Positions 1,022 through 48,671 of a stretch of DNA of 64,000 nt are shown here, in pieces. Position 1 is the stretch's first letter. Each line of letters starts with the position of its first letter. Source of the DNA: an uncultured bacterium (GTDB lineage: Bacteria > Patescibacteriota > Patescibacteriia > Magasanikbacterales > GWA2-37-8); contig CALCZC010000007.1 of the NCBI GenBank assembly GCA_937903605.1, positions 189,805 through 253,804 on the forward strand, in the 5' to 3' direction. Position numbers and translations under genes: made by a program. The notes under the pieces were generated by a model. It did not search any database. It was not told the origin of the DNA and saw nothing but the letters and a program-made list of their open reading frames with translations.

Positions 1022-1828
1022 ATGCCGATAAAAAAAACAATTTCAAAAAATAAAATAAAAAAGGATTTACGCAATTTACCGGAAATCAAAGAGCGTAATT
1101 TTGAAATTCTGGAAGAAAAAATCGGTATTAAATTCAAAAATTTTGAATATCTAGTTCAAGCGTTTGTCCATCGTTCTTATCTCAACGAACATCATGATTT
1201 TCCTCTTTCTCACAATGAACGACTGGAGTTTTTGGGTGATGCGGTGGTTGAACTCATTGTAACCGAACATCTTTTCAATGAATACGGTAACCCCGAGGGC
1301 GAGCTAACCAATTGGCGCGCAGCTTTGGTAAACGCCAAAATCCTCTCCTCTATCGCCTATGAGATAGGCACTGAACCATTTCTCTTTTTGAGTCACGGCG
1401 AATCCAAAGACGCCGGCACCAAAGCTCGCGATTATATCATGGCCAATTTGTTTGAAGCGCTGGTCGGGGCGATTTATCTAGATCAAGGATATGAAGCTAC
1501 TACTAAATTTTTACAAACCTGGGTATTGCCAAAATTACCCTATATTTTAGAAAATGGCTTATACTTGGACCCTAAAAGCAGGTTCCAAGAAAGCGCTCAG
1601 GAGCTGGTTGGAGTAACGCCGACTTACAAAGTTATCAGTGAAGAAGGTCCGGATCATGCCAAAAATTTCAAAGTCGGAGTTTATCTGGACAAAGAATTGG
1701 TGGCCGAAGGAAACGGCACCAGCAAACAAGAGGCTCAAACAGAAGCTGCAGAAATAGCACTCAAAATCAAAGGATGGAAAGGCCCGAAGATAGATATTAT
1801 TAAGAGAAAATCTGGTGATCCAATATAG
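1022..1828 (+). CDS. rnc: Ribonuclease III
   Basis: ERLEFLGDAVVEL catalytic signature plus a C-terminal dsRBD-like region. Confidence 0.85.
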   Translation: MPIKKTISKNKIKKDLRNLPEIKERNFEILEEKIGIKFKNFEYLVQAFVHRSYLNEHHDFPLSHNERLEFLGDAVVELIVTEHLFNEYGNPEGELTNWRAALVNAKILSSIAYEIGTEPFLFLSHGESKDAGTKARDYIMANLFEALVGAIYLDQGYEATTKFLQTWVLPKLPYILENGLYLDPKSRFQESAQELVGVTPTYKVISEEGPDHAKNFKVGVYLDKELVAEGNGTSKQEAQTEAAEIALKIKGWKGPKIDIIKRKSGDPI

Positions 1829-2640: not shown

Positions 2641-2711
2641 ATATTATACATTAATACTTTCCTGGATCCCCGCCTTTCCCAAAGGGAGGCCTTTGGCCCG
2701 CGGGGATGACA

Positions 2712-2756: not shown

Positions 2757-5700
2757 TTATTCCACAGGAACATCTGCCGGAGTTTCAGCCGGGGCTGCAG
2801 GTTCTTCAGTCGGAGAGGTATCTGGTACCGGTTCTTCTACCGGAGGTGTTTCTTCAACCGGCTCTACCGGCGTTTCAGCCGGAGGCGTTTCTGTTACAGG
2901 TTCTATTGGAGTTTCCGCCGGCGCTTCTATCGGCGCGGATGGCGTGGATTCGCCAGAGCTTTCAATCGGCGGTAAAATTATTTCTTCGTTTATTTTATTA
3001 TAAAAATCTTTTAACGATTCTACCGTGCCGTTTGAACTATAAATTTTCGTATCATCCTCCACTATATAGGCCTGCCAATTAAATATTACACTATCGGTCG
3101 CTTGTTCGGTCAAAGTAATTTCAAATCCGCGAGTCGTGACATTTTGTAATTTCCAACGACCGTCAAAATTGAGAGGGGTAATTCCCATCATCGGTGGTAC
3201 GGCATATTCTCCTTCAAAATCAACTTTCACCGAAATATCTCCGGCCATAATTTGCGCTTGACCCAACAAATTAGTTTCCATTTCTTCAGGGATTTCTTCA
3301 ACAATTTCTTCAGTAGTCAACATCGGGGTTTCCTTTGAATCATCTTGCCATACGCGATAATAATCAATATCTATATATTGCGCCCCGCCTCCGGCTACGG
3401 TATTGTTCATAATCATAGAAGTCAACCCGACAGTCGGAATATTGGTCGTTGCTTGACCGCAATAAAACCAATCCACTCCGTCAGTTGCATCGTTATCAAT
3501 ATAAAAATTTATCTCTCCCGTCCCGTCACCATTACTGGAAACTACTTCTATTTTTGCCACCCCAAATACAGCAGTGTTGATAGCTTGTCCCGCACAATCA
3601 ACAACAGTGGAAGCTCCGGCGCGACGCGAAACACCCTGCCACTCTCCGTTGGTGGTGTTATTGGTAAAATAAACACCGTTTAGAGGGTCTGCAGTTTGAG
3701 CTCGAGACAGATTGCTCAAACCAATTCTAAATCGGATATTGGCAGTAACAGCGGACGGAGAAGCTTTGAAAGTTATGACCGGTAAATTGGCGGTATTAAA
3801 GACAAGATTGGCGGTTCCGGCAGTTGTAATCCCATGATATGCCAAACAAGAGTTGGCGCCATTTGTCGCTTGCTGTCTGCCGATACCGTTTACTCCGTTT
3901 GCCACTGAACTCCAAGTACAAGCCGTATTTTCATCAACTGTGAATTGTTGAAAATCACCCCAAGCATACAAAGTATCTGCAGTCACATTTCCTCTACCGC
4001 GCATAAATTCTTCGCCAAAATAAGAATTTCTAGCAATAAAAGCTCCTGTTTCTAAACTCATCCCAAAATTTTGTGATAAATATTTTGCCTCACCCACAAC
4101 AACTCCATCTGAATTTAGCCAATGTTGTAAAGCTGCAGTTTGTCCAACCATACCCTGAACAGCTAAACCAACATTAGTAGTAGTAGCAGTCAAAATATGA
4201 ACCTGACCGGAAAAAACATTTGTATCATTAGCAAAACCACCAAAGCCTATTTCACCAGTTCTAGCTATTTGCATATCTGAATATTCTGTACTACTACCTA
4301 CGGGCTGACGCTTAATACTCCAATAAGGAGTATCGGCTCTGGTATCTAAACGGAAAATAGCACCAATAGAAGAAGTATTTCTATCCCCCAGCTGAGTAGC
4401 ATTAATACCATAGCTCAATAATGTTCCCCCGACTTCTGAGAATAAACCAGCTTTCCATGTAGAACTGTTGGTTACATTCAAACCAATTAAATCAGTGGAA
4501 CCAGCTCGATTAGGGAAAGCATTTGGACCAATTATCCAACCGTCAGTGCCTGAAGTAATTCTGAAATCTCCTTCGTTCAAACTCAATTTAGAAATAGGGG
4601 TAGACGTCCCAATGCCTATATATCCACCATTGGTTATTCTCATTCTTTCATTTTCCGCTTGCCAACCATCAGTCATAAAAATAAGTGCAGCATCGGTACT
4701 GGTAGATTCATTTATAAAATAAGAACCACCCGGAGCTACAGAGTCCCAAACTGCACTTCCTGGCAAAACACCCGCGAAACCTGGAGTGTCTATGCCATAA
4801 TAACCCAATTGTAAAAATTCAACATCACTCCCAGCTTTTAAATTAAATAAAGCTGTTTTGGTACTACTTCCAGATTTTACCTCTGCAGTAAGACCATTAT
4901 CCGGTTCATAAATTCGCAATTTATAATAACCAATATCCGAAGTTCCTATACCGACATGGCCGTATTGATTTACAATTAATGCTGGTTCAGAAGAACTAGT
5001 CATAATACTCAACAACGGATAAGTGGTTGTGCCGGTAATGGATAACATAGCCCCAGGATCTTGCTGATTAATACCTATTGTACCGGTAGAATTCAAAGTT
5101 AAAACATTGTTAAATAATCCCGCATCATCTACAAAATAAAATATAAATTTATCATCTTGATTATCATCTCTTTTTGAAAGTTGCCAATATTTATTATTTT
5201 GGGTTACAAAATTCAAGTTTGTAGCTCCCGCAATAGTTTTTTGTAAAATTGTCATTGCCGGGCCTGCATTATCTGTCACTACATGCAAAGGTGCTTGAGG
5301 AGTAGTAGTACCGATACCAACAGGACCACCAATCACCATTTTACCTGTGGTAGTAACATCGCCATTTACCTGTAAAGCAGTTGAACTCACTAAACCCGAA
5401 ACCATCAAACCGTTTGATAATTCAAATTGTGTAGCAGAATTATTCCAACGTAGATAATTATTAATGCCATTGTTAAAATAAAAATTATTATTTCCTGCAG
5501 TAGTAAATTGAATATTATCACCAAACAAAACCGGACCGGATAAAGTAGATGTTCCGGTGACCGATAAATTTCCACCTAACTTAGAGTGTCCAACTACTTC
5601 AAATTTTACATTACTACTGGTGGCACTATTTCCTACCACTACTGCATAATCTCCTGTTAAGTCCGGATAAACAACATTAGCGGTCGTAGTTACCCAAATA

Positions 5701-8700
5701 CTACTGCCTCCGCCACCAGATGGCCAAGTATTGCGAGTCACTCCGCCCAAAGTGATGGAATCAGCCACCAAAATATCAGTGGTACTCACTGTGCCTAAAA
5801 CATTGATATTGTTTACAGTCAAATCCGAAATCGTAGTTGTAGCCAAAATTGAATTACCCAAAACATTCAGCGTGCCGTCAATATATACCGAAGAACTGGC
5901 ATAAATAATATCTTTGAACCACACCGGAAGAGTTGTGGAAGTTGTCAAAACATTTCCGCCGTTGTGCGAAGCTAACAACCAGTTGGCGGTCGCCCCGCCG
6001 GCACTCGCCAACAAATTTCCGTTCCAATAAAGATCTCCGCCAATGTTGTAAATAGAGTTGGTGGTAGTGGCTGTGGCCGTATCTCCAATATAAATACCTC
6101 CGTCAACGTGGAGTTTGTTAAGCGGATCATAAAGTGCTTGGCCGATACCCACAAACCCGGTTCCTGCCTGAATAGTCAAAATGTCGTCCCCTTCCGCCCC
6201 GACTGAGTCGTCCCAAAGACGAAAATCCAGAGAACTGGTCGGCATATACCAAGACCAACCATTGTCATAACTACCACTATTCACGCGACGGATATAATGT
6301 CCCGCCTCACCGTTACCATTGGCGACAATGGTAATATAATTACGAGAGCTGGTAGGACTGGAGCTTAAATCAGATCCCCAAACTTCCAAAAGATCATAAG
6401 GTGTGGAAGTGCCTATTCCAAAAGAACCCTCAAATGTGGCAAAAGATTTATTTTGTAAATCACCATGACCGTTACTAATAAAATATTCCACTGTGCCGGA
6501 AACTCCGTCCGCAGTATATCTCACCGGGAAAATATCAGTATCTGTTTTGAACTGGTTGGAAGTCAACACTATATGATCGTTGGCCGTATTGGCGGAGCTA
6601 AGGTAAACATTGTTTTCACTAACCCCCGGACCGGCCCAAGCAAAAGAAGAATTGGTGATTTGCACTCCGGATAAAACAGTGGAACTGTTCACATAAGCCG
6701 GAATCAATTTTACGCTTCCCGGAGCCACAGTCAAAATTGTTGCAAATGCCGAATCAACATAAGTATTAAATCTGGCATTATCATGATAAAAAATCTTAAC
6801 GTTATTTGCCGGAGCAGTGGCATAAATCGGAAAAGTGATTACAGGGTCTTTGATAGTAGCAATACTACGTAAACTTTGATTATCGGTATAAAGCACAGAT
6901 AGATCATCGTCACTGTCATAAGTATTTACAAAAATTTCCGGGTTATAGATATAAGCGTTGGTAATAGTTGAGCTGGTTAGATAAAAAATGGTATTTATTT
7001 TTGTCCCAACAGTATTGGTAGTTTGAGTAAAGTTGTATTTATTGGCGGTAAAACTTTCCAAAGTGCCGTTTTCTTGATAAACCACGGCTTGGATATCTTT
7101 ACTACCGTCCGTATATTTCGCACCCACAGTTACATTTTTCAAAACAGATTTACCTGCGCTTTTTATCTCTACCGCATAATCATCCGTATTTTCCAGATCA
7201 ACCATAGATAAAACACTGCCATAAGTCATATCAAACGTGACTTTGCCTTTGATAAAAGTATTACAACCCATACCTCGAACTACTACAAAATCTTTCATCT
7301 GCAAATCTTCGGTGAAAGTTCCGGCGGAAACTGAAACCGTATAAGGATTGGTAGAAGACGATAAAACCGCGGCCGTATCAATAGCGTTTTGGATGGTTTT
7401 TTTTGCTCTGGCCGTACTGTTGCCATCAAAACTGTCTTTACCGCTCACCGCGTTAACATAAATAATATTACCTTCAATAAGCGCGTCATTAATAACGATT
7501 TCCGACCAAACATTGTGATTATTATTGATATTGCGAAGTTCCATGATACCGTTATTGTCACGGAAACCATATCCTGCTGCTCCGGTCGTAGTGCCAAAAT
7601 TAATATAACGATTTTCTCCTTCAATAAAAACATTACCACTAATTGATAACGGGGCCAAAGGAGTGGAAGTACCGATACCAACATAACCGGCATTACCCCC
7701 GCCGGTTCCAACTATCACCATACTTCTTTGTTCGTCGGTTGGATCAACATCAAAAATAATATCTCCGCCCGAGGCCAATGTCGAAAGTAATAAATCACTG
7801 ACTGAATACAACGCCAAACTGCCGGAAATTCCCGGGAGTCCGTCATTCCAGCCGGAACTCAAGGCTGTCAAACCGCCCAATTTTCCCAAATCGTTATACA
7901 AACTAAATTCCGCAGTAGAAGAAGGACCGGAGTTGTTATTGTGAATAGCCAAATTTAATTCATCATTAGTATCTCCGTATAAATAAAAGGCCTTGCCATT
8001 GACAGTGGTAGTATTTATAGCCACTAAACCGTTTTCATCTATAATCACGCGCTCTGTGCCGGCTGTTTGAAAATGAATTTTGTTTTCATTTGGTGAAGCT
8101 TCGGTTTCCACTTTAGTATCTCCGTCCGCGTCTTGAATATATGTGCTAGTATTACCACCGACAACCGGCGAGCCGTTCCAATAAAGTTGCCCGCCAAGAT
8201 TATAAAGGGTGTAAGAAGTTACTGCCGGAGAAGTACTGCAAATAGACAATCCACCTATTAATGTCAAAGCGTTTTTTGGTGTGGTAGTACCAATACCGAT
8301 AAAACCGCTGCTAGACACAAAAATATTACTGGTCGGCGCCCAAGAATCTCCATCCCAATAAGCAAATTGCCCTTCGGTAACACCAGGATCAACAGCAGTC
8401 AAAGGAACACTATTCATAAGATAACTACCGGTAATATCTATATCTCCGTCAACAGTCAATTGTGAATTGGGAGTGGAAGTACCAATACCGACATTGTCAC
8501 TACTGCCTTGTACAAACAAGGCATAATCATTATCCGGCGTCTTAACTTGAAAATCATAATTTCCACTACTACTGTTAAATATCGCTCCTCCTTGGAAATA
8601 CATCAACGAATTAAACCCATCCAAAGTCATTAATTTATTATCAATCAAACTTTTACCATCACCGGTGTCGTTGTTATAAAAATTAAAAAGCAAATTGGAG

Positions 8701-11700
8701 TTTGTTCCATATTTTGACATCATCCAACCTCGCATACTGGAAGTAGAACCAAATCCATCGGTATCCGAATAAAGATACAATCCGGCAATAGCACTCCTAT
8801 CTCCGCTGATTGCGGATAATTTTGCCTCACTGCTAGTCGCTTGAACTCCGAGCATCGTTCTTTCTCCGGGATTGTCATTAACAAAGATTAAACCATTATT
8901 TCTATAATAATCAGCTTGATAAGATAGTTTCGGAAGAATAGCCATGCCCGTATCAATTTTGATAACATCTTGATTGATATTGGAGTGCCTACCAAATAAA
9001 ACCACCCCTTCTTCTTCAGCCAAAGCGTAAAAATAAACATTGGCCGGATTATTGATGCTAATATCGGCACTGGAAAAAGCTCCGTCGCTCGAAGAAATAT
9101 TTATGGACGAACTGTCTTTTTGATCAATATTCAAAGTGGCCGCTTTCTGCAAATAACTGGCCGTAACTTTGGTAGCGGAATCGTCATTGGTAATAATGTT
9201 ATAATCCAAACCCCACATGTTGGAATAACGAATTTCCGCATAAGATCCGTTTCCTTCTATAAAAAGCCCTGTGCCCAAATCGCTGTTGGATCCGAATTCA
9301 CTGCCAACCATATAAAAAGATGACGAACCTGTCGTACTTTTCAAATGTACAAATCTGTTTTCAACATTTTCCATATAAACATTTTCGACTTGAGCTGCAG
9401 CACCGTTGTCTAAATTCACACCAATATTGCCGATATTATAAAAATCTGATTTGAAAATATTTAACAAGTTGGCTACTTGCATATTTATACCTGTCTCTGT
9501 GTCTATAATCACCAATTCGGAAAAATCCATCCAAACACTGCCGGTATTACTAACTCTAATAGCATCGCAACCGGATGTATTTCGAAAACCGACGGTTTGT
9601 GAACCGTCAATGGTCAACAAACGAATAGAAAAATCATTTTCTTCAGAAAAATTTATTTCAAAAATAGGACCGGGAGAACTGACCAGGTCCGTTGTCGGAC
9701 GAATCATCACCGCTTCTGTACTCATACCTCGAATACTTTTTATGTGAGTACTGGTAACAACCAAAGTAGATGAAACATCATAAACTCCGGGATAAATATT
9801 TATTATAGTGTCATAATCAACACCATTAGCAAAAGCAACAGCGTCTTCCAAATTATCAAAATCTCCCCCGCTTTTGGCCACATTGATGATATGGTCAACT
9901 TTGGTCGAAAAATTATTCCAACCACCACTCGCGTTCTTCCATTGCATCACCCCGGCATTATCGCGAATACCATAACCTACTGTCCCTGTATTATTTCCGA
10001 AATTCAAATACCTATCCGCGCCGGTAATAGAAAGATTGCCATAAACATCCAAAGCGGAAAGAGGAGAAGTGGTACCGATACCGACAGAACCTCCAAAATA
10101 ATTCACAGATGCTGTACCATCGGAATAAATATTAAAATTGGAATTTTGAGCAAAATTTTGTTCTTCGATATAAAGTCCGTACAAACTTCCGATTGTTCCC
10201 GTTCCCGTGCCGCTGGTCGGGTTATTAATTCTCATTCCAAAAGCCGTTCCAATATTTCCTCCTTCTATACCAAAATCTGATTGAATAGCCGAAGCATTGG
10301 AAATAATCCCATTACCTATACCGTTTTCAATATAACCGCTTAAGCCCAAAGCCAATCCTATGTTTCCGCTAAAATTTACATCTCCGGAACCATTAGTCGC
10401 TGTTTGTCCTCTCAATCCGAAAGCAACACCAACACTTCCCGTGGAATTGTCCAACTCGGCAGAAGAAATTTGTCCCAAAATCATGTTAACCGATCCTGAA
10501 CCTTGATGAATAACTTGATTTAAAAGACCGGCGATAACTTCAAAATTATTATTATTACCTTCATTGGTTGTAACACTGAGCAAAGTATTGATTGTTGTAG
10601 AAGCATCTTCTATAGGATCAAGCTCTATACCCATAACATTACCCAAAGTAAAGCCGTCTCCTGAATTTGATAAATTTGTATATTTTTTATAAGAAGCAAA
10701 AACCGAACCGCTTGGAATCTCTGCGGGAAAATTTTCTCCCACCATCAATTGAGTGATCGTGGTGGTGGACAAAGTGGAACTTCCTATAACATTCAAGTTG
10801 TTATTTATTATCAAAGCTCCGGTCATGGTATCGCCTGCAACATTAACCCAATTGTCCGTACCGGAGACCATAAAAGAGGTACTAGTAAAACCACTCCCCA
10901 CCAAACTCGTGCCGTTAAACCAAATAAATTCATTGCTCGCAAAACTGCCGGCATTGGTGCCGCCATTGGCAATCGGCAAAATTCCCGCGATATCGGAAGT
11001 CAGGTTTACTGTTGAAGTAGACCAAACACCGTTGTTAATTTTTACAAAACCTGTCCAACCGCTAGTGTCTTGTCCTGTCCCGCCATAATTGGTCGCAATA
11101 ATATCACCCTGCCATGTACCGGCGGAAATAGTACCAAAAGAAGATGCTCCGGTTAAGATAAGATTGGCAATAGTAGTCGTTGCCATCAGAGTATTTCCGG
11201 TAATGGCTAAATTTCCACTAATACTGGAAGTGGCAGTGCTACTGTTCATGGTTAAGTTTGCACCTGTAAATCCGCCGGATAAAATATTTAAATTCAAATT
11301 GTTATCCAGAGCCAAAAGCGTATTGGCCACAGCAGTGGAAGAAGCATGAAAACCGTCAACTCTGTCGGAATTGAAAGCATACGGATGAGTCGCCAAAATC
11401 ACACGCGGACTGGCTTCGTTGTCACTTTCTATTTTTACCGCCAAATAATAAGTACCTGTGCTAAAATCCAAATAACTCGGAAAAGCGCCGCAAGCACCAA
11501 GATTTACGGTAAAATATCCTTGGGCATCAGGTTGAACTTTGGGACAATTTCCGGAACTGCCGTCATAGACTTCAGTCCAAAGCAAAGGTCCGGCGGAACT
11601 TGGCGTATCTGTAGGAACTCCGGTGTTTGCGTTGTTATAAATAGAAAATTGAATAGTGGTAGAAGTAGTAATCGGCGTTCCTCCGTTATCTCGCAATCTG

Positions 11701-11852
11701 CCTTGGTAATTTATCAGGTTTGGAATAGCTAAAACTTCTTTACCTATAAAAGAAAAAACCGTCACTAACGCAACAAAAAACATGGCTTTCTGTATATTCA
11801 TCTTTAGAAAGTTAACAAGGAGTTTGGATTTTATTCCCCTCCGAATATTCAT
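2757..11852 (-). CDS. Giant (3031 aa) secreted cell-surface protein with beta-helix domains, recurring GIGT(S/T)TP motif and Pro/Glu/Thr-rich C-terminus
   Basis: Uninterrupted 9.1-kb ORF with an N-terminal signal peptide. Two beta-helix cap-like motifs (AVSGKDSFDGNSTARAKKTIQNAIDTA; AKSGGDFDNLEDAVAFANG). At least 8 copies of VGIGTSTP-like motifs. Tail (ETP/VEP)n. Confidence 0.8.
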   Translation of the reverse strand: MNIRRGIKSKLLVNFLKMNIQKAMFFVALVTVFSFIGKEVLAIPNLINYQGRLRDNGGTPITTSTTIQFSIYNNANTGVPTDTPSSAGPLLWTEVYDGSSGNCPKVQPDAQGYFTVNLGACGAFPSYLDFSTGTYYLAVKIESDNEASPRVILATHPYAFNSDRVDGFHASSTAVANTLLALDNNLNLNILSGGFTGANLTMNSSTATSSISGNLAITGNTLMATTTIANLILTGASSFGTISAGTWQGDIIATNYGGTGQDTSGWTGFVKINNGVWSTSTVNLTSDIAGILPIANGGTNAGSFASNEFIWFNGTSLVGSGFTSTSFMVSGTDNWVNVAGDTMTGALIINNNLNVIGSSTLSTTTITQLMVGENFPAEIPSGSVFASYKKYTNLSNSGDGFTLGNVMGIELDPIEDASTTINTLLSVTTNEGNNNNFEVIAGLLNQVIHQGSGSVNMILGQISSAELDNSTGSVGVAFGLRGQTATNGSGDVNFSGNIGLALGLSGYIENGIGNGIISNASAIQSDFGIEGGNIGTAFGMRINNPTSGTGTGTIGSLYGLYIEEQNFAQNSNFNIYSDGTASVNYFGGSVGIGTTSPLSALDVYGNLSITGADRYLNFGNNTGTVGYGIRDNAGVMQWKNASGGWNNFSTKVDHIINVAKSGGDFDNLEDAVAFANGVDYDTIINIYPGVYDVSSTLVVTSTHIKSIRGMSTEAVMIRPTTDLVSSPGPIFEINFSEENDFSIRLLTIDGSQTVGFRNTSGCDAIRVSNTGSVWMDFSELVIIDTETGINMQVANLLNIFKSDFYNIGNIGVNLDNGAAAQVENVYMENVENRFVHLKSTTGSSSFYMVGSEFGSNSDLGTGLFIEGNGSYAEIRYSNMWGLDYNIITNDDSATKVTASYLQKAATLNIDQKDSSSINISSSDGAFSSADISINNPANVYFYALAEEEGVVLFGRHSNINQDVIKIDTGMAILPKLSYQADYYRNNGLIFVNDNPGERTMLGVQATSSEAKLSAISGDRSAIAGLYLYSDTDGFGSTSSMRGWMMSKYGTNSNLLFNFYNNDTGDGKSLIDNKLMTLDGFNSLMYFQGGAIFNSSSGNYDFQVKTPDNDYALFVQGSSDNVGIGTSTPNSQLTVDGDIDITGSYLMNSVPLTAVDPGVTEGQFAYWDGDSWAPTSNIFVSSSGFIGIGTTTPKNALTLIGGLSICSTSPAVTSYTLYNLGGQLYWNGSPVVGGNTSTYIQDADGDTKVETEASPNENKIHFQTAGTERVIIDENGLVAINTTTVNGKAFYLYGDTNDELNLAIHNNNSGPSSTAEFSLYNDLGKLGGLTALSSGWNDGLPGISGSLALYSVSDLLLSTLASGGDIIFDVDPTDEQRSMVIVGTGGGNAGYVGIGTSTPLAPLSISGNVFIEGENRYINFGTTTGAAGYGFRDNNGIMELRNINNNHNVWSEIVINDALIEGNIIYVNAVSGKDSFDGNSTARAKKTIQNAIDTAAVLSSSTNPYTVSVSAGTFTEDLQMKDFVVVRGMGCNTFIKGKVTFDMTYGSVLSMVDLENTDDYAVEIKSAGKSVLKNVTVGAKYTDGSKDIQAVVYQENGTLESFTANKYNFTQTTNTVGTKINTIFYLTSSTITNAYIYNPEIFVNTYDSDDDLSVLYTDNQSLRSIATIKDPVITFPIYATAPANNVKIFYHDNARFNTYVDSAFATILTVAPGSVKLIPAYVNSSTVLSGVQITNSSFAWAGPGVSENNVYLSSANTANDHIVLTSNQFKTDTDIFPVRYTADGVSGTVEYFISNGHGDLQNKSFATFEGSFGIGTSTPYDLLEVWGSDLSSSPTSSRNYITIVANGNGEAGHYIRRVNSGSYDNGWSWYMPTSSLDFRLWDDSVGAEGDDILTIQAGTGFVGIGQALYDPLNKLHVDGGIYIGDTATATTTNSIYNIGGDLYWNGNLLASAGGATANWLLASHNGGNVLTTSTTLPVWFKDIIYASSSVYIDGTLNVLGNSILATTTISDLTVNNINVLGTVSTTDILVADSITLGGVTRNTWPSGGGGSSIWVTTTANVVYPDLTGDYAVVVGNSATSSNVKFEVVGHSKLGGNLSVTGTSTLSGPVLFGDNIQFTTAGNNNFYFNNGINNYLRWNNSATQFELSNGLMVSGLVSSTALQVNGDVTTTGKMVIGGPVGIGTTTPQAPLHVVTDNAGPAMTILQKTIAGATNLNFVTQNNKYWQLSKRDDNQDDKFIFYFVDDAGLFNNVLTLNSTGTIGINQQDPGAMLSITGTTTYPLLSIMTSSSEPALIVNQYGHVGIGTSDIGYYKLRIYEPDNGLTAEVKSGSSTKTALFNLKAGSDVEFLQLGYYGIDTPGFAGVLPGSAVWDSVAPGGSYFINESTSTDAALIFMTDGWQAENERMRITNGGYIGIGTSTPISKLSLNEGDFRITSGTDGWIIGPNAFPNRAGSTDLIGLNVTNSSTWKAGLFSEVGGTLLSYGINATQLGDRNTSSIGAIFRLDTRADTPYWSIKRQPVGSSTEYSDMQIARTGEIGFGGFANDTNVFSGQVHILTATTTNVGLAVQGMVGQTAALQHWLNSDGVVVGEAKYLSQNFGMSLETGAFIARNSYFGEEFMRGRGNVTADTLYAWGDFQQFTVDENTACTWSSVANGVNGIGRQQATNGANSCLAYHGITTAGTANLVFNTANLPVITFKASPSAVTANIRFRIGLSNLSRAQTADPLNGVYFTNNTTNGEWQGVSRRAGASTVVDCAGQAINTAVFGVAKIEVVSSNGDGTGEINFYIDNDATDGVDWFYCGQATTNIPTVGLTSMIMNNTVAGGGAQYIDIDYYRVWQDDSKETPMLTTEEIVEEIPEEMETNLLGQAQIMAGDISVKVDFEGEYAVPPMMGITPLNFDGRWKLQNVTTRGFEITLTEQATDSVIFNWQAYIVEDDTKIYSSNGTVESLKDFYNKINEEIILPPIESSGESTPSAPIEAPAETPIEPVTETPPAETPVEPVEETPPVEEPVPDTSPTEEPAAPAETPADVPVE

Positions 11853-14627: not shown

Positions 14628-15723
14628 ACGATTGTTAAAATCAATCTTTGCGACACAAGCCTCGAAATATTTCCTTTTGGGGCTTGTGTTTTTATTGTCC
14701 GCTCTGCCGGCTTTGGTTTTTGGCGCCGTAGTCACACAAAATGTAACCGTTTCCATCGATAATAGCTCTTATCACTGTTCCAACAAAACTCAAGATTATG
14801 ATGAAACCGGTGTGGATTGTGGCGGAACGCTTTGCGGAACTTGCGGAACACATTGTACAAACGGAATTAAAGATTTTGACGAAACAGGCGTTGATTGCGG
14901 AGGGTCTTTGTGTCCTTCTTGCGGCGGGGGTGGAGGCGGTGGCGGGGGTGGAGGGGGTTCTCTGCCGGTTTTAGTTTCTTCAGTAAACTTTTCCGGTTTT
15001 GCTTATCCGAATGCCAAAATATTTTTTCTTCGCGACGGAATTTTGGTTAATACCTTTTTTGCTTCTTCAACCGGAACTTTTCAATATTTGTTAAATTCCA
15101 TTACTGCCGGTAATTATCGTTACACCTTTTACGCTTCCGACTCAAGAGGAGGATATTCTTCTTCTTTGGTTTTTCCTTTAACCGTGGTTGCCGGAAATTC
15201 TTATCAAGTAAGCAACATTTTGATTCCTCCGACCTTATATTTCAATTCTCAAGAAATAAAGCGCGGTGACAGTTTAGAATTTTATGGTCAAAGCGCACCA
15301 AACTCAATTCTTCTGCTGGAATTAAAAAATTCTGTTTCCGGAAATACTTCCGCTTTTCAAACCATCGCCGATTCTTCGGGAAATTATTCTTATCTTTTAG
15401 AAACCTTGGGGTTGCCGGAAGGAAATTATGAAATCAAAATCAAAATGAAAATCGGTCTTATTGAAAGCGCTTTTAGCAATTCTTTTCCTTTTACGATCGG
15501 CGTCAAAACAGTGGAAAAACCCGTTCCTACGAGTAAATGTCCGGCCAAAGGCGATCTTAACGGCGATTGTAGAGTAAATTTGGTTGATTTTTCCATTGCC
15601 GCTTATTGGTACAAACGCACGGTCGCCACAAGTTTTATCAATACGGAAAATTCACAACTCAACGGCGATGATATTATCAACTTGATAGATTTTAGTATTT
15701 TGGCTTATTATTGGACCGGGTAG
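14620..15723 (+). CDS. Secreted Cys-rich repeat protein with poly-Gly linker and C-terminal dockerin-like repeats
   Basis: Two YDETGVDCGG.LC..CG repeats; a Gly12 run; GDLNGDCRVNLVDFSIAAY and QLNGDDIINLIDFSILAYYW match the dockerin Ca-binding repeat consensus. Confidence 0.7.
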   Translation: MPKRLLKSIFATQASKYFLLGLVFLLSALPALVFGAVVTQNVTVSIDNSSYHCSNKTQDYDETGVDCGGTLCGTCGTHCTNGIKDFDETGVDCGGSLCPSCGGGGGGGGGGGGSLPVLVSSVNFSGFAYPNAKIFFLRDGILVNTFFASSTGTFQYLLNSITAGNYRYTFYASDSRGGYSSSLVFPLTVVAGNSYQVSNILIPPTLYFNSQEIKRGDSLEFYGQSAPNSILLLELKNSVSGNTSAFQTIADSSGNYSYLLETLGLPEGNYEIKIKMKIGLIESAFSNSFPFTIGVKTVEKPVPTSKCPAKGDLNGDCRVNLVDFSIAAYWYKRTVATSFINTENSQLNGDDIINLIDFSILAYYWTG

Positions 15724-15727
15724 TGAA

Positions 15728-15778
15728 AGTTCGGCTAGGCGCCCTTAGCGCCCTATTGCCGAAGGCAAGCCGAACTTC
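15728..15778. repeat. GC-rich three-stem structured element
   Basis: agttcggc ... gccgaact encloses ggcgcccttagcgcc and ttgccgaaggcaa. Confidence 0.45.
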
Positions 15779-15810
15779 TACTACCCGGTGGACCGGGATA
15801 ATGTAAAGAT

Positions 15811-16098
15811 ATGTTTTTTTACGTTTATATTATACAAAGTTTAAAAAATAAAAGCCTTTATGTTGGCTATACCCAAGATTTAATAAAAAGATTAGACCAA
15901 CACAATGATGGCAATAGTACGTATACAAAAAAATATATACCTTGGCAATTAATTCACTACGAAGCTTACCGCAATGAAATAGATGCAAAACGCAGAGAAA
16001 AATATCTCAAAACAAATCAGGGGAGCCGTTTATTGAAGCGTATGTTAAAAGAATACTTTTATAATCAAAATTCCAATGATTCAGATTCAAAAACTTAA
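15811..16098 (+). CDS. GIY-YIG nuclease family protein (second copy)
   Basis: FYVYIIQS...SLYVGYTQDLIKRLDQHN...KKY...EKYLK. Confidence 0.75.
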   Translation: MFFYVYIIQSLKNKSLYVGYTQDLIKRLDQHNDGNSTYTKKYIPWQLIHYEAYRNEIDAKRREKYLKTNQGSRLLKRMLKEYFYNQNSNDSDSKT

Positions 16099-25506: not shown

Positions 25507-25545
25507 ATTTTGCCCGTCTCTTTTAGAGGCGGGCTTTTTTATTTT

Positions 25546-25619
25546 ACTGGGTTGACCCTGTGAAATATCGTCCGCCTTAGCGGACGATCCTGTTTATAAC
25601 AGGATTTCACTGGGTTGAC
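25546..25619. repeat. Inverted-repeat-bounded element, copy A
   Basis: ccctgtgaaat ... atttcactggg; flanked by direct repeat actgggttgac; inner hairpin gtccgccttagcggac. Confidence 0.55.
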
Positions 25620-25682
25620 AAAAGTGTTAAATTGAGGTATGCTTAAGCATTCGTCCTTTAACAACTTTTCAGGGAGTTTGTC

Positions 25683-31805: not shown

Positions 31806-32045
31806 TTTATTCTCCGGTCGTATATGGCCCGACTCCGGCGCTTAATTAAACTAAATGTAAGGAACAAATATTTTAACAACGCATTGTAGCACATTTTAAC
31901 ACTTTTGTCAATAGTTTAGCTTGGCTAATTTTAGCCAAAATTAAATATAAATAATGCCTTTCGCCCCCGTTTTTTAATATTCAATATTCAGTATTCAATA
32001 TTAAATTATTGACAAACACTCCATTCTTTGCTAATATTTCCTCAA

Positions 32046-32148
32046 ATTCAACCCTGTAAAATCCGCTATCGCGGACCACGGGGCAAGCTAATAAACGGTG
32101 GGATCTGCGGGCCACTCCCGTGGAGCTTGTACCACTAAACATATTTTT
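32046..32148 (+). promoter_or_regulatory. Putative ribosomal protein L1 autoregulatory leader
   Basis: GC-rich structured segment (gcggaccacggggcaagc...gggatctgcgggccactcccgtggagc) directly upstream of rplA in an AT-rich context. Confidence 0.35.
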
Positions 32149-41513: not shown

Positions 41514-41695
41514 GTTTGCCTCGTGATCCGTTTTAAACGGATTTTACGGGGTATTATGTATTAAGTATATGAATTTTAGCTTTTTAGGGCTAAAAAGTCA
41601 ACTTTACTAGAACCTATAAACATCTTGACAAAAAAAGAAAAATAAGCTACATTATACGGCACGTTCATTAAAAATTTTTAACAGCGGAGAAAAAA

Positions 41696-42240: not shown

Positions 42241-42271
42241 ACAAAAGCGTCCCATAGGGACGCTTTTTTTA
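42241..42271 (+). terminator. Rho-independent terminator
   Basis: aaaagcgtcccatagggacgcttttttt. Confidence 0.65.
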
Positions 42272-42275
42272 TTTA

Positions 42276-42345
42276 CTCCGTGAAATTTCATCCCGATGAA
42301 AAATCGGGATGAACCTGCCAAAGGCAGGATTTCACAGGGGTGAAC
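42276..42345. repeat. Inverted-repeat-bounded element, copy B
   Basis: ctccgtgaaat ... atttcacaggggtgaac; inner hairpins tcatcccgat/atcgggatga and cctgcc/ggcagg. Confidence 0.55.
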
Positions 42346-42349
42346 CCGG

Positions 42350-43177
42350 TTAAACTCTAAACTTTTTCCCTAGAAAATCTCTAAAAGCTTTTTTATCAAA
42401 ATCCCAAAAATTTGTTGGTACTGGAATTTTGCCCAAACTATTTTCCGCTTCTATGGTAAAAATCGGATATGCTAGCCCAGATAATTTTTTTCGTAATTCA
42501 CTATAAATTTTTATTTCTTTTTTCAGATCAACTTCAAACGGTTTAGCATTAGCAACCGGATCACAATGAAAAAGATAATAAGGTTTAACTCCGATTTCTG
42601 TCAGTTTTTCAAATAATTCTTGTAAGATTTTTACATTATCGTTTATTCCTTTCAAAAAAACAGTTTGACTCAAAATCATAGTTACACCTGTTTGTATTTT
42701 TTTTATTGCTTTGTCTGTTTCTTTGCTCAATTCATTAAAATGATTAACATGCAACATTAGATAAATTGGTTTATTTTTAACTGTTTTTAAAATTTTTACT
42801 ATTTTATCGTTTATGGCTTTTGGATAAGTTATTGGCAATCTAGTACCGATACGAATCATTTTTATTTGTGATAAATTTCCCAATTCTTTCAAACATTTTT
42901 CTAAAACTTCCGGCGTATTCAGCGGATCTCCGCCGGAAAAAATTAACTCTTTTATTTCTTTATTTTTTATCAAGTATCTTTTTATTTCCTTTATTTCTTT
43001 ATTTTTTATCAAGTATTTCATTTTCATCATTTCCCTTTTTCGCATACAAAAAGCACATTCTTGGGCGCAAATATTATTTACCAAAATCAAGGCCCTATTT
43101 TTATAACGGCAAATCAATTTAGGTACCGGCATATTTTGAATTTCCAAAAACGGATCGCTGTTGTTTATTTTTTTCAT
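42350..43177 (-). CDS. epmB: Radical SAM lysine 2,3-aminomutase-like protein (EpmB/YjeK family), short form with in-frame 12-aa tandem duplication
   Basis: CAQECAFC (CX3CX2C) followed by LIFSGGDPL; adjacent to epmA. Confidence 0.6.
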   Translation of the reverse strand: MKKINNSDPFLEIQNMPVPKLICRYKNRALILVNNICAQECAFCMRKREMMKMKYLIKNKEIKEIKRYLIKNKEIKELIFSGGDPLNTPEVLEKCLKELGNLSQIKMIRIGTRLPITYPKAINDKIVKILKTVKNKPIYLMLHVNHFNELSKETDKAIKKIQTGVTMILSQTVFLKGINDNVKILQELFEKLTEIGVKPYYLFHCDPVANAKPFEVDLKKEIKIYSELRKKLSGLAYPIFTIEAENSLGKIPVPTNFWDFDKKAFRDFLGKKFRV

Positions 43178-48330: not shown

Positions 48331-48545
48331 AAAAAAACACGCGGTTGCGTGTTAAGAGCCCTGGTTAAGGGCGGTACCATCTTAACTTTATACTTAATTT
48401 AGTGGTTTTTACGGGCCCGACCGGGAGAGTCTATTTTTTGCTAAAATAAGCAAATTTCTTTCTCCAACGCTCTCTAAAAAAGATCCTTGTTGATAGCAAG
48501 TCTTAGCGTTTTTAACTTGTTCTAATAATACCTATTTATAAAATA
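48331..48545 (-). promoter_or_regulatory. T-box-like riboswitch leader of ileS
   Basis: Minus strand: TTGACA-17 nt-TATTAT promoter, Stem-I-like region, conserved T-box core UGGUACCGC, then terminator acacgcaaccgcgtgttttttt. Confidence 0.55.
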
Positions 48546-48671
48546 TTTGTCAATTTATTTTAAATACTATCAACATCTCTAATAAATTGCCAAAACTCTA
48601 CAAACCTTATATAATAAGGATATTAAATTACAATCTTGTAATCTTTAAATCTTGCAATTTTGCAACCTCTT

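Follow-up and report, generated by a model that had tools for sequence, protein, structure and literature searches.

A short nested-palindrome repeat with three intergenic copies in a Magasanikbacterales contig belongs to a widespread and probably mobile non-coding family

The DNA analyzed here, called the window, is a stretch of 64,000 nt from contig CALCZC010000007.1 of an uncultured bacterium of the order Magasanikbacterales. The isoleucyl-tRNA synthetase (IleRS) encoded in it has its nearest named relatives in Candidatus Magasanikbacteria (Patescibacteria, or Candidate Phyla Radiation, CPR). The window lies on a metagenome contig of 301 kb. The window carries three copies, A, B and C, of a short element in which a long closing stem surrounds exactly two adjacent, near-perfect hairpins. 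An initial annotation, made by a model from the letters alone, had reported three such copies, and all three were found at their places. They are real members of one repeat family. The explanation we prefer, with a probability of roughly 60%, is that this is a widespread, short, non-coding and non-autonomous nested palindrome, similar to miniature inverted-repeat transposable elements (MITEs) and REP sequences, which is mobilized in trans. Written in a common orientation (5′ CCCTGTGAAAT ... ATTTCACKGGG 3′), the three copies and their parts are as follows.

25551-25619, + strand: copy A, full element (sequence, fold and a covariance-model match of 45.9 bits)
25551-25566 paired with 25604-25619, + strand: closing stem of copy A, GTTGACCC-T-GTGAAAT with ATTTCAC-T-GGGTTGAC
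25567-25588, + strand: hairpin 1 of copy A, ATCGTCCGC CTTA GCGGACGAT
25589-25603, + strand: hairpin 2 of copy A, CCTGTT TAT AACAGG
42272-42344, - strand: copy B (covariance-model match of 57.6 bits), in the order TTCACCCC-T-GTGAAAT, hairpin CCTGCC TTT GGCAGG, hairpin TTCATCCCGAT TTTTC ATCGGGATGAA, and ATTTCACGGAGTAAA
48254-48321, - strand: copy C (covariance-model match of 60.5 bits), in the order TTCACCCC-T-GTGAAAT, hairpin ATCTTCCGC TGTG GCGGACGAT, hairpin CCTATC TAC GATAGG, and ATTTCACGGGGTAAA

The copies are 68-73 bp long, intergenic and solitary, with 6-17 kb between them, and they are so filled by their hairpins that no space is left for a gene. Their closing stem of 12-16 bp is conserved (TTCACCC[T]GTGAAAT / ATTTCAC[G/T]GGGTRAA). 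The inverted-repeat ends described in the initial annotation are genuine, although the repeat reaches further outward than was given there, to about 16 bp (TTCACCCC / GGGGTRAA), and the one or two hairpins that it counted per interior turned out to be exactly two in each copy. No linker separates the hairpins, so the fold is a perfect three-way junction, with one unpaired or wobble T in the closing stem. Hairpin 2 of A differs from that of C by two compensated pairs (CCTGTT/AACAGG versus CCTATC/GATAGG). Judged by their sequences, the interiors of A and C are of common ancestry; the hairpins of B are different.

The fold and the number of copies are both far from random expectation. Fold z-scores of the three copies ranged from -4.9 to -7.5 as RNA and from -6.4 to -9.1 as single-stranded DNA (copy A, -9.1), and the predicted transcript fold is a very stable three-way junction of -30 to -41 kcal/mol. 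The pattern GTGAAAT-N30-60-ATTTCAC was observed three times in the window against 0.03 expected, and three occurrences were reached in none of 100 shuffles. A covariance model, which was trained on two foreign copies and then run over the 64-kb window, recovered A, B and C at 46-60 bits (E from 1e-11 to 4e-16). It found no further full copy in the window, just two weak one-hairpin look-alikes.

We scanned one genome per species with the pattern CCCTGTGAAAT-N30-60-ATTTCACKG and obtained at least 118 loci, about half of them clean two-hairpin elements. At least 66 two-hairpin copies came from pattern scans of metagenome-assembled genomes (MAGs), and a stricter subfamily pattern gave 22 more stretches in metagenome contigs, most of them with two hairpins. 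Among the matches listed, the hosts were Moran-, Wolfe-, Nomura-, Zambryski-, Taylor- and Magasanikbacteria, Paceibacterota and Gracilibacteria and, outside the CPR, Cloacimonadota, Bacteroidota and a Desulfobacterales chromosome rich in copies. Hosts also included several MAGs labelled as Gamma- or other Proteobacteria; in one of these, CAYRYH01, the elements closely match Magasanikbacteria copies. Two top-level hairpins were present in 48 of the 118 unique interiors listed, compared with 46 of 2360 shuffled interiors and one of 24 unique interiors among chance matches on viral contigs. All 42 arm-pattern stretches on the viral contigs were chance matches in coding DNA; the element is not phage-borne in this set.

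A search of all 4227 Rfam families gave no gathering-level match, either in the window or in 19 element-bearing loci. Sub-threshold matches to Gut-1, to pieces of the anti-hemB terminator and to a CRISPR-DR28 fragment were weak or partial and were rejected. Literature searches on the motif, on MITEs in CPR bacteria and on Gut-1 returned no description of the family.

Several related arrangements were seen in the loci that we fetched from foreign genomes and contigs (numbered with L). The Desulfobacterales chromosome OY759308.1 carries at least 11 near-identical repeats of about 190 nt (L046, L049, L050, L068, L081, L102, L104, L119), with the GTGAAAT core in the center and very A/T-rich hairpins, which suggests a recent burst in a non-CPR genome. 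Dense clusters or tandem arrays of arms alone occur in L157 (Thermodesulfobacteriota), L194, L138, L078, L090 and L070, and tandem or clustered arms were also recorded in L191. Examples are simple hairpins of the form CCCCGTGAAAC-GCCT-ATTTCACTGGGG, three successive units of ATTTCACGGGGTAAAC, and nested left-left-right-right arms, which are BIME-like or iteron-like. In many MAGs of Bacteroidota and Rikenellaceae, a separate conserved 80-nt sequence, ATGCGACGCTTGCCCTGTGAAATTTGAGGCACGAAAATATTTCATCAGGGAAGGAGCATATTTCACTGTGG, has the arm motif and no two-hairpin interior (L043, L059, L060, L069, L071, L074, L079, L094, L115-L117, L125, L128, L134, L146, L151, L154).

Copies are gained and lost at orthologous intergenic sites among close relatives. 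In the rpiB-ileS spacer, C is present in the window and absent from two relatives with 96% (L167) and 91% (L168) IleRS identity. A relative with 82% IleRS identity (L170) has a copy at the exact C site, but from another subfamily; its interior matches a copy in another MAG, upstream of a class I aminoacyl-tRNA synthetase gene, which from its sequence is probably metG. That MAG has a further copy, upstream of a different gene, with which copy C of the window shares 93.7% identity over 111 nt. In yet another strain with 96% IleRS identity, the C site holds an unrelated insert of about 140 nt, of the AATATTGAATATT type. As this site is filled by different inserts in different strains, it is an insertion hot spot. 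Since close relatives lack C, ileS and its leader evidently do not need it. An insert of about 140 nt at this site (positions 95-230 of L172 and L173, between the T-box terminator and the ileS ATG) is related to an A/T repeat of the AATATTCAATATT type in the window.

The other sites gave similar results. A 96% relative, which has two copies within 17 kb, keeps copy B at 97% identity (L171). That relative also carries a copy upstream of pfkB, a site at which the window sequence is unrelated. The A site has three allelic states: terminator-TTATGTAACA-TTGACA with no arm (L178), terminator-GTTTCACAGGG-TTGACA with one solo right arm (L176), and, in the window, a solo-arm-like 16-mer abutting a full element. 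Comparison of orthologous sites in sister genomes had been proposed in the initial annotation, and only three copies in the whole genome with no polymorphism would have spoken against its description; the C, pfkB and A sites are all polymorphic. Independent short-read assemblies end exactly at the arm (GGGGTAAAA...), including three Logan contigs at the right arm of C, and such breaks are expected of a dispersed repeat.

The conserved parts of the element were compared copy by copy, as a MAFFT alignment scrambled the hairpins. The stem consensus over the family is TTYACCC(N)GTGAAAT ... ATTTCAC(N)GGGTRAA, 12-16 bp. Each arm is dyad-symmetric by itself (TTCAC-N3/4-GTGAA), and the stem usually contains a single unpaired or wobble T. 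The arms covary, as in GTTAAAT/ATTTAAC (L064, L109) and GTGAAAC/GTTTCAC (L069, L140). In copies that had not been pre-selected by pattern, the odd position beside GTGAAAT was T·G, T·T, T-A, C-G or T·C. No fixed sequence is seen in the interior, and all four Watson-Crick pair types are found at each basal position of both hairpins. The interior is nevertheless almost perfectly paired: 40 of 58 copies had no unpaired base at the junction, and 744 of the hairpin pairs were Watson-Crick (97.5%), against 7 G·T, 3 A·C and 9 others, with no excess of G·U. An RNA helix under RNA-level selection would gather G·U pairs on one strand. Hairpins that are Watson-Crick, strand-symmetric and unrelated in sequence thus suggest a palindrome kept at the DNA level rather than an evolved RNA. 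The near-perfect complementarity might be kept by selection on both strands, by hairpin-templated repair or by template switching.

These observations are best explained by mobility in trans. No transposase domain was among the Pfam matches of the called genes, at loci covering about 1-58 kb of the window, so any mobilizing function would have to be supplied from elsewhere; the cognate transposase that the initial annotation had proposed to look for was found neither among these genes nor in the fetched loci. An open reading frame (ORF) of 3031 aa at 2757-11852 on the - strand has no Pfam match on record. In about 1 Mb of fetched loci and in the covered part of the window, there was no insertion sequence (IS) with the termini of the element and no transposase. 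Distant arm pairs enclosing a transposase ORF were also sought in the fetched loci, where we found just scattered solo arms, consistent with chance or decay.

We propose that a protein would recognize the dyad-symmetric arms, whether double-stranded or folded into a stem with an extrahelical T, and would copy or recombine the element into A/T-rich intergenic tracts without a regular target duplication. Insertions would often land next to the T-tracts of terminators or shortly before start codons. Solo arms, inverted interiors and tandem or 1.5-unit copies (A among them) could then result from recombination or template switching between the arms. Copies in untranslated regions (UTRs), such as C (ileS leader) and B (3′ UTR), would be co-transcribed and could alter the processing or stability of the mRNA, perhaps as RNase III substrates or as barriers to exonucleases. 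The host genes of sister strains work without the element, and the copies in the window are thus best seen as selfish or neutral DNA.

Inverted interiors were indeed observed. The Desulfobacterales copies form two subfamilies whose interiors are reverse complements of each other with fixed flanks, and L109 has two copies with interiors inverted relative to each other, also between fixed flanks. The hairpins of copy B are similar to those of Cloacimonadota and Moraniibacteriota (L095) copies, in reversed order. Recombination or template switching between inverted arms would explain these cases, and no function is required.

Of the three identities offered by the initial annotation, a MITE fits best, as the element is multi-copy, widespread and polymorphic at orthologous sites. 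A small RNA gene family is not favored, given the lack of a G·U excess, the positions in 5′ UTRs, in 3′ UTRs and near promoters, and the near-identical strains without copies. A dedicated operator is disfavored by the varied positions and, again, by the near-identical strains without copies.

Some results weigh against mobility in trans. Neither a mobilizing enzyme nor an autonomous partner was found in the fetched loci or in the called genes at about 1-58 kb of the window, and there is no clean, repeatable target-site duplication. Recombination or gene conversion between repeats might, in principle, also account for the gains and losses, so transposition is what we infer from them. As the search patterns fixed the arm sequence, ascertainment partly accounts for how invariant the arms and the unpaired T appear. 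The strand that carries the unpaired T has T-rich loops (31 TTT/TTC against 14 AAA/GAA), and the Magasanikbacteria-type subfamily is biased to the sense orientation (about 10 (+,+) against 2-3 (-,-)); both would fit some RNA-level selection. In the Paceibacteria type, the core is internal to a larger cassette, with TATAAT 7 nt before the first base of the stem, and in the Desulfobacterales it lies mid-way in a conserved unit of about 190 nt. In a typical MITE, the ends are conserved and the middle is free; here the arrangement is reversed, which hints at a function of the core.

After its core, the Paceibacteria-type cassette continues with GGGTGATGATTTTCT, the loop AATCGCTTCGCTC, and then AAGAAAATCAATC and ATG. 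It is found upstream of unrelated genes, which by their N-termini were read as an EF-G-like GTPase, an MreB-like protein, an L31-like protein and a DnaQ-like exonuclease. The cassette is a larger quasi-palindrome with outer inverted repeats (GAGCGAAGCGA / TCGCTTCGCTC), and the outer repeat lies upstream of the putative start site. Its layout would fit a promoter-proximal, 5′-terminal stem-loop, but descent of a bigger repeat would explain it equally well. As a separate observation, the whole unit of about 150 nt has the order GAAATTAACGAGCGAAGCGAC, TATAAT, 7 nt, ACCCC...GGGT core, GATGATTTTCT, AATCGCTTCGCTC, AAGAAAATCAATC, ATG, with no Shine-Dalgarno sequence next to the ATG (L148, L073, L105, L141, L118, L120, L123, L150 and others).

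Over the family as a whole, copies occupy intergenic DNA, most of them close to the start of a gene. Among co-directional genes, 22 are antisense and 16 sense, and a further 12 lie between divergent and two between convergent genes. The Magasanikbacteria type has two settings. In 5′ leaders, the order is AAAAATTCA|CCCC...GGGGTAAA|AAATTAAAAATTAAAAATT...ATG. At 3′ ends, the element abuts A7 and a locus-specific GC hairpin; this hairpin is the strong terminator of the opposite strand (junction T7-A-TTTACCCC). Upstream of copies of the 5′-leader type in relatives, we noted a repeated, hairpin-rich module (L076 3650-3770, L127 6640-6760, and L171 6700-6900 on the - strand) with the motifs GTGACACAAAGTGTCA, CCCCGCGAAGGCGGGG and CATTGCGAGGAG...GAAGCAATCC; whole intergenic regions there seem to be made from small perfect palindromes.

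The alternative that survives best is a functional structured RNA module in UTRs, for which mobility would be secondary and which might act as a stem-loop at the 5′ end or a stabilizing one at the 3′ end, an RNase III processing site or a translation-context element. The Paceibacteria-type TATAAT would place the element at the extreme 5′ end of the mRNA, at a fixed distance to the leader hairpin and to the start codons of unrelated genes (those for the EF-G-like GTPase, the MreB-like and the L31-like proteins). Most copies of the Magasanikbacteria subfamily are sense-oriented within 5′ or 3′ UTRs, and on the sense strand the odd base would be a U bulge or a U·G wobble, not C·A. The biased loops, the very stable RNA folds and an RNase III gene in the window (1022-1828) also agree with such a role. 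We still consider it unlikely. Hairpins with so high a share of Watson-Crick pairs, and with 7 G·T against 3 A·C, are unlike evolved RNA helices, and orientation relative to genes is mixed over the family. Near-identical strains lack C, and another strain has a different insert in its place. Pairing in RNA cannot explain an outer repeat of the cassette that lies upstream of the putative start, and no Rfam family was matched.

The initial annotation named a MITE first among its options and took an 11-bp direct repeat at A for a likely target-site duplication; the matching alternative is a conventional MITE, moved by a DDE transposase that makes such a duplication. The repeat, ACTGGGTTGAC, is real (25546-25556 and 25609-25619), but it is better explained as part of the arms. 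The following feature bears on it.

25541-25556, + strand: extra solo right-arm-like 16-mer ATTTTACTGGGTTGAC, abutting the left arm of A; its last 11 bases are the left direct repeat

This 16-mer is identical to the right arm of A (ATTTCACTGGGTTGAC) at 15 of 16 positions. The repeat therefore extends to 16 nt, ATTT(T/C)ACTGGGTTGAC, and is right-arm sequence itself; were it a target duplication, the right arm would be target DNA. A duplication would predict one ACTGGGTTGAC in an element-free allele, as is seen in L176, and a length of 11 bp falls in the range known for IS4-type elements. In L176, however, that single copy is a solo arm, and L178, a more distant allele, carries no arm and no element. 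Right-arm/left-arm tandem junctions (ATTTCAC-N-GGGT-NNN-CCC-N-GTGAAAT) also occur in L138, L140 and L191 and beside B. We read A as a 1.5-unit copy, which may have arisen by duplication of an arm, or else L176 may derive from it through a deletion between direct arms.

In favor of a DDE-type MITE are the terminal inverted repeats, the small size, the numerous copies and the polymorphic insertions. No flanking repeat of consistent length was picked out at B, at C, at the Cloacimonadota copies or at about 20 metagenome copies, where the A/T-rich flanks limit the resolution. Together with the missing IS and transposase, this leaves a DDE-type MITE quite improbable.

In the immediate neighborhood of the three copies, we recognized these features.

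25512-25534, + strand: intrinsic-terminator-like hairpin and T-tract of the upstream gene, immediately before A and apart from the element
25615-25643, + strand: promoter-like TTGACA-17-TATGCT for the downstream gene, 10 of 12 matches
42243-42267, + strand: terminator-like hairpin beside B, AAAAGCGTCCC ATA GGGACGCTTTT, a separate feature
48351-48513, - strand: divergent T-box-like leader of ileS, matching RF00230 at 22.7 bits (gathering score 93)
48553-48525, - strand: promoter of the ileS leader, TTGACA-17-TATTAT

The arms might be a site for a dimeric DNA-binding protein, or the element a portable promoter, given the TTCAC/GTGAA half-sites and the outward -35-like hexamers TTCACA and TTGACA. 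The dyad-symmetric arms resemble a CRP/FNR or Rex box (TGTGAA-N4-TTCACA) with the interior looped out. The outer end of the right arm of A overlaps the -35 of the promoter at 25615-25643. In a few foreign copies, whose flanks were read by eye, TTCACA is followed by a -10-like hexamer about 18 nt on, and the same element and leader stand upstream of unrelated genes, as a mobile promoter would. But no uninterrupted TGTGAA-N2-8-TTCACA box is present in the window, and the likeness to a Rex/CRP-type operator split by insertion is formal only. The TTGACA at A is also in the alleles without an element and thus pre-exists. A promoter is not expected at B, whose neighboring genes converge, and our promoter scan found none reading outward from B or C. 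In the Paceibacteria type, only 12-13 nt separate TTCACA from the nearest -10-like hexamer. A protein site or portable promoter is therefore very unlikely in our view.

The idea that the elements are chance resemblances or pieces of ordinary intrinsic terminators, suggested by a terminator-like hairpin within a few bases of each of A, B and C, has a negligible probability: the counts in the window against shuffles, the covariance-model E values (1e-11 or lower) and the dozens of homologous copies contradict chance, no U-tract follows the elements, and the terminators persist in element-free alleles.

The terminators that the initial annotation placed beside A and B are there as terminator-like hairpins, and C has one directly beside it as well. 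Its own concern that the termini could be parts of terminators did not hold, as the terminators are separate adjacent hairpins; the one at 25512-25534 is kept in both L176 and L178. Copy B lies in the 3′ UTR of a radical-SAM gene (stop codon at 42350), 5 nt past the stop, and is followed at once by a bidirectional terminator. The T-tract of the hairpin at 42243-42267 reaches the end of B in a T7-A-TTTAC junction, and junctions of this type (T7-A-TTTACCCC) were found at several other loci. Targeting of terminators by the whole family was rejected: five of 66 copies had a terminator within 25 nt, compared with 17 of 330 random positions, so that the association concerns only the Magasanikbacteria-type subfamily.

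Copy C lies in the ileS leader, between the leader terminator (48353-48336) and the ATG (48227), 26 nt before the latter. The initial annotation had taken this terminator to belong to a T-box, which is plausible but weakly supported, as RF00230 matched below threshold. Its match had E = 0.002 in a 206-nt search, and a 601-nt search gave no match. A canonical antiterminator, AAGA-UGGUACC-GCCCU...AGGGC-UCUU with a UGGUACC bulge, an AGAGA box and a terminator are visible in the leader, as is the promoter. The region 48351-48553 on the - strand may be a divergent CPR T-box that is overlooked by the current Rfam model.

Two one-hairpin sequences elsewhere in the window are possible decayed relatives, of uncertain membership.

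32047-32088, + strand: CCCTGTAAAAT - CCGC TATC GCGG - ACCACGGGG, upstream of rplA (12.7 bits, E 0.2; DNA fold z -2.6)
41514-41556, + strand: GCCTCGTGA - TCCGTTTTAAACGGA - TTTTACGGGGT (11.6 bits, E 0.42; DNA fold z -3.9)

An A/T repeat of the AATATTCAATATT type is also found upstream of rplA, at 31975-32010. Two other palindromes lie directly upstream of small GIY-YIG ORFs. The one at 15713-15794 (+ strand) is unrelated to the element but shares its architecture; its closing stem of about 20 bp (GGACCGGGTAGTGAAAGTTCGGCT...) surrounds two small GC hairpins (DNA fold z -6.7), and a 95-aa ORF follows at 15811-16098. The other, at 2661-2710 (- strand), is GC-rich (TCATCCCCGC ... GCGGGGATCCAGG) and precedes an ORF at 2344-2640. 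By reading, its interior could form two small hairpins, but the DNA fold predicts one (z -2.8), and a simple-hairpin version of its stem (TCATCCCCGCGAAGGCGGGGATCCAGG) was seen upstream of GTGAAAT elements in L076 and L127. A GIY-YIG nuclease was considered as the mobilizer of the element and rejected, as homologues were present in three of about 135 foreign loci, which shows no association.

We also compared the element with known systems. Most hallmarks of MITEs are present: it is non-coding and shorter than about 300 bp, has terminal inverted repeats of 12-16 bp, and occurs in dispersed copies that are present or absent at orthologous sites. The arms are, however, internal to a larger repeat in the Paceibacteria-type and Desulfobacterales units, and a target-site duplication of characteristic length is lacking. 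Like the Correia elements (CREE/NEMIS), RUP, ERIC and bcr1, as these are generally known, the family is short, non-coding, intergenic and multi-copy with terminal inverted repeats. It shares with Correia-type MITEs the polymorphism among strains, co-transcription, long hairpins as possible RNase III substrates and, sometimes, promoter boxes. In the Correia elements of Neisseria, the terminal repeats measure 26 bp, the duplication is TA and the interior is conserved. In contrast, the interior here is free and always forms two perfect hairpins, no duplication is regular, and the stem is common to several phyla and, in some lineages, placed inside a larger unit.

The family is also like REP, BIME and REPIN sequences, which are mobilized by RAYT proteins (Y1 HUH transposases). 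These are extragenic palindromes as well, occurring singly, in inverted pairs or in clusters, often by terminators and in 3′ UTRs, with neither a target duplication nor a transposase inside the repeat, and REPs are recognized as folded hairpins. Unlike them, the element has no GTAG head (its arm consensus is TTYACCC(N)GTGAAAT) and forms a three-way junction, not a simple hairpin. A given REP sequence is confined to one species or genus, but the arms of this family are conserved from phylum to phylum. No RAYT (IS200/IS605-like Y1 transposase) was found among the window genes with Pfam matches.

Other systems were rejected. An IS200/IS605-derived PATE lacks terminal inverted repeats, has subterminal hairpins of conserved sequence and inserts 3′ of a fixed tetra- or pentanucleotide; here, strong inverted arms are present, the hairpin sequences of A and B differ and there is no fixed left-flank motif. 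Integron attC sites (57-141 bp) are similar in architecture only, with a conserved structure, a free interior and a stem that has an extrahelical base and closes a variable, perhaps branched, terminal part; the element has no R″/R′ cores (RYYYAAC / GTTRRRY), its ends being TTYACCC ... GGGTRAA, and it lies among housekeeping genes with no cassette array or integrase. Gut-1 RNA (RF01706) was the best sub-threshold Rfam match to copy B (16.9 bits against a gathering score of 50), and its hairpins are also separated by GUGAAAU motifs. Gut-1, however, is a row of three hairpins with direct GUGAAAU repeats and no inverted closing stem. The intrinsic-terminator scan called the neighboring hairpins and not the arms, and listed one internal hairpin of A with a weak tail. 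As to CRISPR arrays, the window copies are solitary, and arrays elsewhere have mutually similar 'spacers', that is, they are tandem repeats. Small ribozymes (hammerhead, twister and others) have conserved unpaired core nucleotides, which are missing here, where the junction usually has no unpaired base. The halves of parS-like sites (TTTCAC|GTGAAA) are in the wrong order, with no supporting context. The element thus fits none of the REP-RAYT, PATE, attC, CRISPR or Rfam definitions.

We regard the element as neither a new gene nor a new regulator, but as a variant of a familiar kind of selfish or structural DNA. Its unusual traits are the perfect three-way junction, the free but paired interior, and arms that are shared across phyla and sometimes internal to larger units. 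A bolder explanation, to which we would give rather long odds, is that the dyad-symmetric stem is the recognition site of a horizontally spreading enzyme that acts on folded or branched DNA. The elements would then be its non-autonomous passengers in CPR bacteria, Cloacimonadota, Desulfobacterota and Bacteroidota, and the Paceibacteria core would have been domesticated as an expression cassette. If so, the enzyme could be a hairpin- or junction-directed recombinase or nuclease, and the mobility system would be new and structure-directed. The Paceibacteria cassette (-10 box, 5′-terminal three-way junction, leader hairpin and ATG) would then serve many highly expressed genes.

Genomes of CPR bacteria (Patescibacteria) are small and are usually described as poor in mobile DNA. 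The family inserts in UTRs of core genes, such as the T-box-like leader of ileS, and differs between strains with 96% IleRS identity, so it can be used as a marker of recent genome dynamics. It explains recurring contig breaks in short-read MAGs and is a candidate source of expression variation. An 11-nt stem found from the CPR to Bacteroidota, around interiors that are free but perfectly paired, suggests a shared recognition protein or a shared mechanism at the DNA level. The Paceibacteria cassette may offer a first way to study how promoters and leaders are built in organisms without genetics.

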